64,000 nt of DNA from NCBI RefSeq assembly GCF_024298765.1, contig NZ_CP101210.1. One strand, given 5' to 3'. Positions 46,010-49,425 of the stretch are shown piece after piece. The position numbers and the translations under genes are program-made. The stretch's first letter is position 1. The number at the start of each line of letters is the position of its first letter. Origin of the DNA: Escherichia coli (GTDB taxonomy: Bacteria; Pseudomonadota; Gammaproteobacteria; Enterobacterales; Enterobacteriaceae). The notes under the pieces were generated by a model that worked only from the letters and a program-made list of their open reading frames with translations, searched no databases and had not been told where the DNA came from.

Positions 46010-46440
46010 TTACATATTGTTTTCTTATTGCGATCAAAAACAACAAATTAATAACAAATAATGTGAGGGATAAGAATTGGGTTGAAAGGAAATGAATAAT
46101 TAAAACAATATATTAAGTGTGCTTATACTCTTTTTCGAACTGGTGGCATTTGTTTAAATGCTATTTAAACTGCTTTTCCAGAGTTCAACTTACTGAGTTC
46201 CGTGTCGACTAATGTGAGTAAGATCAATCGCATCCAACCTATGTTACTTGATGGAATCGATAACAATATTAATGAATATACAGATTCCGGGAAGGCTGGC
46301 TATGGGGGCAAATTATTCTCTTTCTGGCAACGGGTAAATAACAGTGACCATTTGTCGAGAAGCTGATACTGAGCTGAGGGATACTGTATATGTCTGGACT
46401 GTAATTGGATGAATTCTATTCAGGGCGGGTCAGGACCAAT

Positions 46441-46466
46441 AAAAAAGCCCGCATCAGCGGGCTTTA
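46441..46466 (-). terminator. Rho-independent terminator (reverse strand)
   Basis: Hairpin aagcccgc-atca-gcgggctt preceded by A6 on the top strand (T6 after the hairpin on the reverse strand). Confidence 0.6.
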
Positions 46467-46592
46467 ATGTCATAGGGAGTCGCGACTCCGTTGCGTATCC
46501 TTTTTTGTCTCCTCACCGTCTGGTCGGTGTCCTGCTGAGACTTATAACTTCCTGTTTTTGTTGGTGTAGTCCTTACACCGTCCAATCATGAT

Positions 46593-46624
46593 TGGTGGAG
46601 CTGGCGGGAGTTGAACCCGTGTCC
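46593..46624 (-). other. att core: duplicated 3' end of tmRNA (ssrA), 32 nt, no tmRNA body
   Basis: Reverse strand reads GGACACGGGTTCAACTCCCGCCAGCTCCACCA, one mismatch to the remembered E. coli ssrA 3' terminus; upstream sequence does not continue as ssrA. Confidence 0.7.
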
Positions 46625-47050
46625 ATAGTTATGTAATTCATTGAATTTAAATAGCCAAATATTGTTGATTTTACAAGCGGCTCTTTTGCGGAACTTTTTC
46701 TGTCCTGTTACTGTCTTACTATTTATTTTAAAATAGTTTCATTTGGAATTAATGGTTTGTGGTTGCAGTTTCGGAGATAGATAGCATTTTTTGCTAAAAA
46801 ATATTTTTATAAAAAATGTGTGTAAAAATGATGTTATGCACAGATTTATGCACAGAGGCTTTGTGATAAACCAGATTGTTTTGGATAAGTTTGTTTTTTT
46901 GTGATTTGTCAACAATATTATTGACTCTTGTTACTAAAGTGAGTGTTTTCTAAGGTGGTCAGAAGTTGTCCCTTCATGTAATCTTATTAGCCATAAAGAA
47001 CAAAAAATAATTCAACATCATTACCAACTATTTGTAAGATAAGGTTTTTA

Positions 47051-47866
47051 ATGTTGCAGCCAGCAAAAAAAGCATCAGTTATTAGCGCGCGGCTAACGAA
47101 ATACCTCAAAGATGGAGTGAGGATTGATGACTTTAGCTTTAGAAGGATGTTACGTGAGATTGAAGCACTTAGAGATCCTGTCTCTGAGGACTATCTTTTA
47201 GCGTTGGTCTATGGTGCACATGGCCAAGTGAATGAGGCGATAGGCTTCTTTGAGCGTTCCTTGCAGGTATGCCATAATGAGGTTGTTGCAAAGAATTTTC
47301 TTGTTTTCTTGTCAGATTACGGTACGTTGAAGAAAAGCTTTGAAACAAGCATTAAGCTTGCTGAAAGCTTCATATCCCCGTTTATTTATCTTCAAGCTTA
47401 TGAAAACTCCCTCTTTATGGGGAAGATGGCGTTGGCGGAGAAGTATTTCCAGTCATACTCTAAATTGTTCGGAGATAAGGAGCCTGAAAAAATGGACAAC
47501 AATCTTGATGAAGTTGTTTCCCAGGTCGAATCCTTTAAGCAACGTGCCGATCTTTCTGGTTTAGAATATGAACTTATTTTCAATAATGTAGCCAATGTCA
47601 TGGATTCTCAGAAGGTTCATCTTTCGGGAATGCGTTTTTATAATATTTCGGAAGAGAAAGTGAATGCGATTGTATTCATGACAAAGTCTTCTGATGCTGA
47701 ACAAATCGCTGATATGAATATTGAGCTTGCTTTTTCAATGGCTGAGCACGATTGTTTAGTCGGTAAAGATTTTGCTGTTTGGTTTGAATGTAAAGACACA
47801 CATATTGAGCAGAATGCTATCTCCGAATTAGGTCTGATTACCCGGAGGGTTGCACATGCCGGTTAA
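47051..47866 (+). CDS. Hypothetical protein, gene 1 of a two-gene cargo operon between att core and int
   Basis: 271-aa ORF, about 40 percent GC by eye, no TM, no recognizable catalytic motif; stop overlaps the start of the next ORF. Confidence 0.6.
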   Translation: MLQPAKKASVISARLTKYLKDGVRIDDFSFRRMLREIEALRDPVSEDYLLALVYGAHGQVNEAIGFFERSLQVCHNEVVAKNFLVFLSDYGTLKKSFETSIKLAESFISPFIYLQAYENSLFMGKMALAEKYFQSYSKLFGDKEPEKMDNNLDEVVSQVESFKQRADLSGLEYELIFNNVANVMDSQKVHLSGMRFYNISEEKVNAIVFMTKSSDAEQIADMNIELAFSMAEHDCLVGKDFAVWFECKDTHIEQNAISELGLITRRVAHAG

Positions 47867-48239
47867 TAGTCAAGATTTTCTCGGTTTTGCAAAAGACTGT
47901 CATCAACGTAATGACGAAATCGGCTATCGAAATGCTATAGCAAGATCCTACTATGGCGCTTACCATCATGTCTTGCCTTGTATGGTAAACGGGCCGAAAG
48001 ACAGTCATCAGGGGCTAATCAATTATTTGCAGGGCGATGCTTCAAGAGGAAGTGAAGTATATGAAGCTAGATATCTAAAAGGGATTAGTTTTATCCTGAG
48101 TCAACTTAAAGCTCAGAGGATTGTTGCAGACTATCGACTTGATCAATCGGTCACTTCTAAACAGTCTGAAGTTGCGATTCTAACAACTGAGAGGCTCTTT
48201 GCTAAGTGTACGGAAATGCTTAAATCGAGAGCCTCCTAA
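47856..48239 (+). CDS. Hypothetical protein, gene 2 of the cargo operon (unverified HEPN-like R-x6-H motif)
   Basis: ATG at 47856 preceded by SD ggaggg; about 127 aa; motif RSYYGAYHH; terminator hairpin aaagccacttaagtggcttttttt immediately after. Confidence 0.55.
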   Translation: MPVNSQDFLGFAKDCHQRNDEIGYRNAIARSYYGAYHHVLPCMVNGPKDSHQGLINYLQGDASRGSEVYEARYLKGISFILSQLKAQRIVADYRLDQSVTSKQSEVAILTTERLFAKCTEMLKSRAS

Positions 48240-48252
48240 TTGATAAAGCCAC

Positions 48253-49425
48253 TTAAGTGGCTTTTTTTGTGATATTGCTGGTCGTATTACCGTCATATTC
48301 CTTTAAATATAAACCATAATGACGAAATAACATTTCCGGCCCTTTATGCCCCATTTGAGCTGCAAGCCAAAACAGGTTTGCTCCCCGGCTGATATGGCGG
48401 GTGGCGAATGTATGCCTAGTTTGATATGGATTTCTGTAACGAATACCTGCTTTTCGCAATGTTGGCACCCATGCTTTTTTCCTGATTGCATCAGCACTTG
48501 CCCAAGGCTTATTGGTCTTTGGATCTTCAAAGACAGTAGTATCCTTCATGAATGTAAATGGCTTCTGATTTATCAGCGCCAACATTGCCTCTTCTGTCAG
48601 TTCAACTTTCCGAGTACCTGCTTTTGTCTTTGTCCCTTTGATAACACCGACAACACTTGCGCTCTGGACATGGGCAGTTTTTCCAACAAAGTCGATATCA
48701 CGCCATCGAAGGGCACATAATTCAGAACTACGCAGGCCTGTATGTATAGCGAACCGGAACAGATTTTCCCATTGTTTGTTTCCGGCTGCTGCTAGTAATG
48801 CATCAACTTCTGCTGGTGATAGCGGATCAACTACGTAGCTGCTTTCTGCTTCTGACTTATCACTTTGGTAGCGCGAAGCTGTTACTAACGATACGGGGTT
48901 AATTTGAAGTACCCCATCGGTCACGGCTTCATCAAGTGCTGACCGCAGGAAAGATAACTGGTTGCGAATTGTTTTTAAGGTCGTTTTCTGATTTTGAATC
49001 CACGCTTTCAGGGTTGCTGGTGTTAATTCACTTGCAGGGCAAATGTGAAGTGAGGCTAACGCACTACGGCATTTTTTATAGCCACCAATCGTAGAGGGTG
49101 AAAGTTTTCTTGTTTCGCAGATTTCAAGATATTCGTCCAGGTACATCTTTACCGTTTTGCCTGCAGCAGCATTACCAAAAATTTTCAAACGAGCAGAACG
49201 GGGAAAATATTCTGCATAAATGAATGTTCCCCTTTCGATCTTATTATGGATTTCGCCGAGTGTACGCTCGGCGTATTTAATGTTCTTTGGTGTTACTTCC
49301 AGATTGGAAAGCGGCTCACGACATCTAACTCCTTTGTAGGTGAAAGTTATATTGATCGTTTCTCCCTGGCGGTGTTTCCTGATTGTTACGCCGCGCGGTA
49401 GTTTGAGCAGTTTTGTCTGGCCCAT
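48253..49425 (-). CDS. int: Phage integrase (tyrosine recombinase)
   Basis: 390-aa ORF with N-terminal arm-binding-like domain and C-terminal catalytic region (RHTFATRH ... LFRHYGLY). Confidence 0.9.
   Translation of the reverse strand: MGQTKLLKLPRGVTIRKHRQGETINITFTYKGVRCREPLSNLEVTPKNIKYAERTLGEIHNKIERGTFIYAEYFPRSARLKIFGNAAAGKTVKMYLDEYLEICETRKLSPSTIGGYKKCRSALASLHICPASELTPATLKAWIQNQKTTLKTIRNQLSFLRSALDEAVTDGVLQINPVSLVTASRYQSDKSEAESSYVVDPLSPAEVDALLAAAGNKQWENLFRFAIHTGLRSSELCALRWRDIDFVGKTAHVQSASVVGVIKGTKTKAGTRKVELTEEAMLALINQKPFTFMKDTTVFEDPKTNKPWASADAIRKKAWVPTLRKAGIRYRNPYQTRHTFATRHISRGANLFWLAAQMGHKGPEMLFRHYGLYLKEYDGNTTSNITKKAT

Follow-up and report, generated by a model that had tools for sequence, protein, structure and literature searches.

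Promoters controlled by DnaA, such as those of dnaA, nrdAB, and mioC, and cooperative arrays of DnaA boxes carry copies of the 9-mer TTWTNCACA. An interval of 2-3 bp between boxes of the same orientation is reported to favor cooperative head-to-tail binding of DnaA (PMC8682772). The subject of this analysis is a non-coding block of approximately 430 bp (46625-47050) in a 64-kb window of the Escherichia coli chromosome (the window being the whole stretch of 64,000 nucleotides that was analyzed), where it separates a prophage att core from a cassette of two cargo genes, here called A and B. The block likewise possesses perfect 9-mers, with a same-orientation pair separated by a 3-bp gap; unlike the promoters named above, it carries its boxes on a mobile prophage cassette and some 125-165 bp upstream of the only conserved promoter-like element. 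We consider it probable, at roughly 65%, that the block is the junction of two modules: the P′ arm of the prophage attachment site (46594 to ~46712) and a control region belonging to the cargo cassette (~46713-47050), the latter presumably under DnaA-dependent control. A preliminary description of this DNA had noted an AT-rich non-coding block with short direct repeats and a palindrome, and had suggested integrase arm-type sites, IHF sites, or an operator for the cargo operon.

The block has a G+C content of 28% (0.28-0.34), against approximately 0.5 in the adjoining genes. Its left end adjoins the reverse complement of the 3′-end of ssrA, and its right end is the ATG of a 271-residue open reading frame at 47051. 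That it lacks credible open reading frames holds: only mechanical frames of at most 58 residues are found, and non-triplet insertions and deletions in the homologues disrupt them. A small conserved reading frame was considered and rejected on the grounds of these broken frames and of the ATG at 46976, which directly precedes a stop codon. The repeats cited earlier are likewise all present where they had been placed. TTATGCACAGA occurs twice, at 46834 and 46846, giving “tatgcacag” at 46835 and 46847; TTTGTGAT, containing “tttgtgat,” occurs at 46860 and 46898; and the palindrome GTCAACAATATTATTGAC occupies 46908-46925 with one mismatch. Within this single sequence they stand at chance level. A direct repeat of at least 11 nt was reached in 17% of dinucleotide shuffles of the block alone, the count of repeated 8-mers in 49%, and an 18-nt palindrome with one mismatch in 11%; whether they are real is therefore a matter settled by comparison with relatives.

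With TTWTNCACA taken as the DnaA-box consensus, the two “tatgcacag” copies fall inside a conserved cluster of predicted DnaA sites, the members of which are:

46817..46827, minus strand: predicted DnaA box 1, inverted; TGTGTGTAA (8/9) when read in register with the homologues, TGTGTAAAA (9/9) when moved by 2
46834..46842, plus strand: predicted DnaA box 2; TTATGCACA (9/9), the first “tatgcacag”
46846..46854, plus strand: predicted DnaA box 3; TTATGCACA (9/9), 3 bp after box 2, the second “tatgcacag”

The triad thus consists of an inverted box, a gap of 8 bp, and two direct boxes separated by 3 bp, and it lies approximately 235-196 bp before the ATG of gene A. Three perfect boxes occur in 36 bp (46819-46854), whereas the shuffle mean is 0.07 and none of 2000 shuffles reached three; these are also three of the five perfect TTWTNCACA sites in the entire window. 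Across the loci the conserved parts of the triad read TGTGnATAA (46817-25) followed by two copies of TTATnmACA with a 12-bp period. In 11 diverged loci, the boxes hardly vary at positions 1-4 and 7-9, and position 5, N in the consensus, takes G, A, C, or T. The position of box 1 reads TGTGTATAA, TGTGCATAA, or TGTGGATAA in the homologues, several of which carry the canonical TTATCCACA and TGTGGATAA. In strain CFT073, box 2 is TTATACACA, changed only at the N position, and the other substitution nearby destroys one “tttgtgat.” A wider scan with protein B yielded 70 viral loci. Here, a clade with 54-61% identity in protein B keeps a perfect TGTGGATAA-N7-TTATCCACA, at -222 and -206, and a separate clade at approximately 38% identity has seven to eight boxes of mixed orientation between -265 and -130, within 140 bp. 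The latter clade (L082, L084-L088, and L111; L082 1983-2125) displays a denser cluster than that of the window. Other cargos found in the same slot possess no such cluster of DnaA boxes.

An AT-rich, H-NS-silenced spacer of horizontally acquired DNA, furnished with nothing more specific than chance repeats, would account for the low G+C content and for the shuffle results obtained with the single sequence. This explanation does hold for two of the motifs. The “tttgtgat” pair is at chance level, is not conserved, and has lost one copy in CFT073, so that its proposed role as a functional site was rejected. The same applies to AATATTGTTGA in the P′ arm (46658-46668), whose reverse complement recurs exactly within the palindrome (46909-46919), 240 bp away; the match of 11 nt is near chance expectation and is not conserved in the homologues. 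For the block as a whole the chance explanation is highly improbable, in view of block-wise conservation across loci with proteins at 34-59% identity and of three perfect DnaA boxes where 0.07 are expected.

The right-hand part of the block accompanies genes A and B wherever these are found. The pair occurs in att-int slots belonging to this integrase family (L008-L012, L016, L017, L027, and L028), downstream of the tail-fiber genes of another prophage, where neither int nor att is close by (L013 and L014), between murJ and flgN on the chromosome (L015), and adjoining unrelated integrases in Pseudocitrobacter and Enterobacter (L038 and L039). Conserved blocks from approximately -270 to the ATG are kept in all of these contexts, even at 34-59% identity in protein A, and the triad stays at its fixed distance from the start codon (-235 to -196). 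The region ~46713-47050 would accordingly represent the cassette's own portable 5′ control region, which travels with it. In addition to the triad, it includes the following features:

46713..46780, no strand assigned: left border of the cargo module; AT-rich and variable, with similarity to other-cargo prophages ending here and the cassette loci differing in length
46781..46797, plus strand: conserved block ATAGCAyTTTTTGyTAA, mean column conservation 0.86 in the 11 diverged loci
46908..46925, no strand assigned: inverted repeat GTCAACAATATTATTGAC (the palindrome of the preliminary description), half-sites (A)TGTCAA and TTGAC(AT), the half-sites present in 10 of the 11 loci
46954..46986, plus strand: best conserved promoter-like element, -35 TGGTCA (46956-61), 17 bp, -10 TAATCT (46979-84), within the blocks GGTGG and TTCATGTAmTCTTA
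47035..47053, plus strand: ribosome-binding region TAAGATAAGGT and ATG of gene A, conserved in all loci

Furthermore, TGTTAGATAAGGT is conserved just 5′ of the ATG. The conserved blocks do not appear to act as RNA: RNAalifold gave a consensus of -3.95 kcal/mol over 309 columns for the 11 homologues, with no real covariation and with pairs confined to the inverted boxes and a 4-bp palindrome, and Rfam, searched with gathering and E-value thresholds, returned no match in the region of the block except a fragment of tmRNA. A structured RNA, a small RNA, and type III antitoxin repeats were rejected on this basis, from which we conclude that the blocks are sites at the DNA level.

The left-hand part of the block has the expected anatomy of an attachment site. 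Its features are:

46594..46622, minus strand: att core of the prophage junction nearest the integrase (attL-type), formed by a displaced ssrA (tmRNA) 3′-end; partial tmRNA match in Rfam, E = 2e-6
46634..46646, minus strand: IHF-like site (H′-like) between core and arm repeats, one mismatch to WATCAANNNNTTR
46677..46705, plus strand: candidate arm-type sites for Int within the P′ arm, two 11-bp units in tandem, CGGCTCTTTT (46678-87) and CGGAACTTTT (46689-98), recognized by sequence recurrence

The core matches exactly the 3′-end of the complete ssrA that prophages of this type have at their far end (L007 23823 onward), the identity stopping after GAACCCG. No complete tmRNA gene was found within the window, only this 3′ fragment; in the closest genome a lambdoid prophage intervenes, with the complete ssrA at its opposite end some 40 kb rightward, and it is for this reason that 46594-46622 is read as a displaced ssrA end and att core. 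A TTGAW/ATGAT element occupies the place of the IHF-like site in phages phiNP, Kp4866-6, and LLS. Thirteen prophages and phages of this integrase family, whatever their cargo, have the block TGCGGnTCyTTTnCGGnnCyTTT, built from units of CGGnnCYTTT, at approximately 55 bp from the core. This block recurs in the P arm in direct orientation (L007 23713-23733), with the 3′-end of the complete ssrA approximately 100 bp away. The P and P′ arms align locally with a score of 31 (shuffles: 19.6 ± 2.8), and a corresponding pair of blocks is present in phiNP.

In the attP map of phage lambda the core is followed by the H′ site for IHF and by P′1-P′3, and the distances within the arm resemble that map. Several features recall lambda-type P′ arms generally: an integrase that possesses an arm-binding domain, a core in common with the bacterial target, tandem repeats of approximately 11 bp that come after an IHF-like site and stand 55-85 bp from the core, and related repeats in the other arm. 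The recurrence of the arm block in both arms, together with the arm-binding domain of Int, thus suggests that 46623 to ~46712 is an ordinary lambda-type P′ arm. Unlike in lambda, integration is targeted to the ssrA 3′-end, the repeat CGGnnCYTTT bears no relation to its lambda counterpart, and the P′ arm is separated from int by cargo. If Int works as it does at lambda attP, its N-terminal domain would grip the tandem repeats while its catalytic domain would act at the core. With upstream regions anchored at the ATG, 46623-46712 aligns only among loci of the att-int slot. Prophages with the same integrase (82-93% amino acid identity) and other or no cargo share the core, the IHF-like element, and the arm block only, and diverge after ~46712, which marks the boundary between the modules.

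This boundary bears directly on the proposal that the “tatgcacag” and “tttgtgat” repeats and the palindrome belong to attP as arm-type or IHF sites that the cargo has moved away from int. Their position between the att core and the cargo, and the arm-binding domain of Int, do favor it. They are nevertheless absent from the P′ arms of eight relatives that have the same integrase and other or no cargo, and from the P arm; they are present with the cassette at places without int or att (L013 and L015); their distance from the core, 210-300 bp, places them outside the conserved arm block (55-85 bp); and the “tatgcacag” copies match the DnaA consensus exactly. There is thus very little probability that these motifs belong to the attachment site. 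The general expectation of the preliminary description was borne out to the extent that the block contains arm-type-like repeats, an IHF-like site, and what appears to be a regulatory region for the cargo. The motifs it singled out are not the Int or IHF sites, and those that resemble such sites, at 46634-46705, had gone unnoticed.

A different possibility is that the TTATnCACA repeats and the GTCAA/TTGAC half-sites are operators of a dedicated regulator other than DnaA, encoded by the cassette, the phage, or elsewhere in the host, the likeness to DnaA boxes being coincidental. Boxes 1 and 2 do form an inverted repeat such as a dimeric repressor would use, operons of the toxin-antitoxin kind are often autoregulated, and the GTCAA/TTGAC half-sites clearly need another factor. 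The spacer between these half-sites varies (1, 3, 8, or 19-22 nt), which argues against a rigid dimer. Against a dedicated regulator, no DNA-binding fold was seen in the predicted structures of A or B by fold comparison, which favors a host factor over self-regulation of the cassette. Furthermore, the elements persist in three unrelated genomic contexts, so that a phage-specific regulator is unlikely, and the pattern of conserved and free positions fits the DnaA consensus at all nine positions, with homologues carrying the canonical TTATCCACA or TGTGGATAA. We regard a dedicated regulator as unlikely.

DnaA-dependent control of cassette transcription would be the most likely function of the triad, as judged from its sequence. 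Host DnaA would bind boxes 2 and 3 cooperatively, and box 1 in addition; its occupancy would set transcription of the cassette, by repression or activation, and expression would track the amount or state of free DnaA. The candidate promoter TGGTCA/TAATCT, approximately 70 bp before the ATG and with an implied leader of approximately 60 nt, is the only sigma-70-like pair in the same alignment columns in most homologues. Two other candidates were discarded: a minus-strand TTTACA-17-TATTTT is not conserved across the homologues, and TTGACAT as a -35 is not followed by a conserved -10 and shifts in position relative to the downstream blocks.

Several points weigh against this reading. The distance of 125-165 bp from the boxes to the candidate promoter is large for a simple repressor, the promoter itself is weak, and neither scans with position weight matrices nor inspection by hand, on both strands, produced a convincing conserved promoter overlapping the boxes. 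The chromosomal copy between murJ and flgN (L015) has degenerate boxes 2 and 3. No boxes are present in the homologues from Aeromonas, Gilliamella, and Thiotrichaceae or in many viral clades, and DnaA control is therefore not universal in the family. Triads of boxes are common in viral contigs, with 29 stretches of the geometry seen here, 9 of its mirror image, and 52 with all boxes direct, all far above chance. As to the attachment half of the reading, the arm-type sites are putative, the IHF-like site has its mismatch, and the similarity between the P and P′ arms is moderately above that of shuffles.

With several geometries so common in viral contigs, the arrangement of the boxes itself carries little information; a special meaning of this geometry was rejected, since the viral contig scans did not show it to be specially enriched. 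Perfect triads of the form TGTGGATAA-N6-10-TTATCCACA-N3-TTATCCACA were observed in 26 unrelated viral contigs (L120-L145) with 30-61% G+C. Some adjoin genes for an HNH endonuclease and terminase, and that of L129 lies directly upstream of a strong extended -10 promoter.

The main alternative to transcriptional control is that the boxes do bind DnaA but serve as a titrating or modulating site in the manner of datA or DARS, or as a remnant or auxiliary replication element, with effects on replication of the host or the phage. High-affinity boxes beside a very AT-rich tract (46795-46816), the clade with seven to eight boxes in 140 bp, and the frequency of box clusters in viral contigs are consistent with such a role. 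When the cores of DARS1 and DARS2 were taken from strain MG1655 for comparison, they proved similar in having three clustered boxes, one inverted relative to a tandem pair with a 3-bp gap. The inverted pair of DARS is, however, convergent (TTATCCACT-N5-TGTGGATAA), whereas that of the window is divergent (TGTGnATAA-N7-9-TTATnCACA), with a gap of 8 bp (7-9 in homologues), and the IHF and Fis sites that flank DARS2 are not evident at the triad. With only the 3-bp tandem pair in common, a DARS-like element was rejected because of this difference in geometry. Also, no initiator gene is present, protein A being TPR-like and not winged-helix, and the fixed distance from the triad to the start codon in all contexts points to coupling with the operon. 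A titrating or replication-related role is thus quite unlikely in comparison with DnaA-dependent control of the cassette. As a separate observation, the left flank of the MG1655 DARS2 core (L045 5090-5115), TTATGTGCAgagTTATAAACAgagg, is a tandem of degenerate DnaA-box-like 9-mers with a 12-bp period and resembles TTATGCACAgatTTATGCACAgagg of the window.

The window derives from an E. coli chromosome and is 99.6% identical over the query to strain UID2309220027; CFT073 has the same arrangement. Genes glaH-lhgO-gabDTP lie to the left of 46594. Rightward of the core the order is the 430-bp block, the overlapping plus-strand genes A and B, int on the minus strand, and then xis and early genes. The genes beside the block are:

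47051..47866, plus strand: gene A, 271 residues; TPR-like helical repeats and a small C-terminal alpha/beta domain (phrog_17809; AlphaFold pLDDT 87; best fold matches are TPR proteins)
47856..48239, plus strand: gene B, 127 residues; HEPN fold, a helical bundle predicted with confidence (phrog_5176; pLDDT 92.6; best fold matches are HEPN proteins, the top one 2hsb, TM 0.74)
48253..49425, minus strand: tyrosine integrase, 390 residues, with N-terminal arm-binding domain (PF12167, Arm-DNA-bind_2, E = 9.7e-24, and PF00589)

The integrase shares 85-93% amino acid identity with those of Citrobacter phage phiNP, Klebsiella phage Kp4866-6, and Escherichia phage LLS. What lies between core and int differs among these phages and among sister prophages:

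phiNP: an AAA ATPase plus additional sequence
Kp4866-6: no cargo; int ends approximately 70 bp from the core, its stop codon overlapping the arm repeats
LLS: one unrelated gene of 271 residues
Sister prophage of strain 042: AAA ATPase and Dam-type methylase
Sister prophage of UTI89: three genes, including one for a STAS-like protein
Sister prophage of strain H2: DarT and NADAR antitoxin
Sister prophage of strain 3985: a single gene of 265 residues

The overlap in Kp4866-6 indicates that cargo was inserted between the arm sites and int. The view of the preliminary description that the cargo is a later insertion agrees with this, with the variety of cargo, or its absence, in relatives, and with the frequency of the integrase (411 of 5426 complete E. 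coli genomes) as against that of the block and this cargo (43 of 5426). The slot (46713-48330 in the window; also L047-L050, L003, L005, and L006) spans the interval from the P′ arm repeats to the last 10-25 codons of int, and the C-terminal tail of the integrase varies together with the cargo.

Variable slots for defense cargo are known beside the integrases of prophages and satellites, and the slot described here resembles them in that its sister prophages hold a DarTG-like pair, an AAA ATPase with a methylase, and other small operons, and in that the cassette includes a HEPN-fold partner, as do many abortive-infection and toxin-antitoxin modules. It differs in that PADLOC 2023 yields only a weak HEPN hit for the cassette. 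Compared with HEPN toxin modules such as HEPN-MNT and AbiV, protein B has the helical-bundle fold and an invariant R-x6-H motif (R30-x6-H37 in 13 sequences), and genes A and B overlap as in toxin-antitoxin pairs, but the partner is TPR-like and not a nucleotidyltransferase, and the structural E-values are modest (0.015). Both proteins belong to PHROG families that have no assigned function. Searches of Pfam, NCBIfam, PADLOC 2023, and PDB sequences revealed no known family for the cassette, only weak TPR and HEPN hints, and the accessions of its proteins are not mentioned in the literature searched. Protein A is rare, with ten 90% clusters in a large protein database, and it diverges much faster than B: in L013 the identities are 59% for A and 87% for B, and A stands at 56-59% in L012-L015. 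The presence of DarTG in the slot elsewhere, the overlapping genes, and the HEPN fold of the protein models together suggest that the cassette is a candidate toxin or defense (anti-phage) module.

Two further observations concern the surroundings of the junction. Approximately 160 bp downstream of the ssrA 3′-end (46435-46594) recur at both prophage ends (compare L007 23660-23822). They include a terminator hairpin and an arm-type-like block, are found in phages LLS and phiNP also, and match 3862 E. coli records; the apparently bacterial region downstream of ssrA therefore looks like phage P-arm DNA left by successive integrations. The second concerns a contig (DYWT01000267.1; L037) of a metagenome-assembled genome assigned by GTDB to “Sporosarcina psychrophila,” which is nearly identical to the E. 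coli prophage junction (cassette 99-100%, int 98.7%) and is probably an Enterobacterales contig mis-binned into a Firmicutes genome.

The att arm is textbook biology, and placing it does no more than clean up the annotation. By comparison, DnaA control of a candidate defense cassette of this kind is not described in the searchable literature, and the DnaA-box control region of the mobile TPR/HEPN cassette appears to be undescribed. A block that looked like integrase sites would thus be the portable control region of an uncharacterized two-gene cassette, the best-conserved feature of which is a set of consensus DnaA boxes, and additional defense genes might be sought in the slot that runs from the P′ arm to the final codons of int. 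If DnaA does control the cassette, the state of replication initiation would be linked to a probable toxin or defense module carried by prophages. As a tentative extension, which we hold to be possible but doubtful, this mobile TPR and HEPN cassette may be wired to DnaA within a defense slot in such a way that occupancy of the triad, or of the seven to eight boxes in the related clade, sets the expression of a potentially toxic HEPN effector. Were this so, a disturbance of initiation or of the pool of free DnaA, for example through a phage taking over the cell, the entry of DNA with many DnaA boxes, or an arrest of replication, would switch the module on or off, and DnaA would serve as the sensor input of an abortive-infection or addiction-type system.

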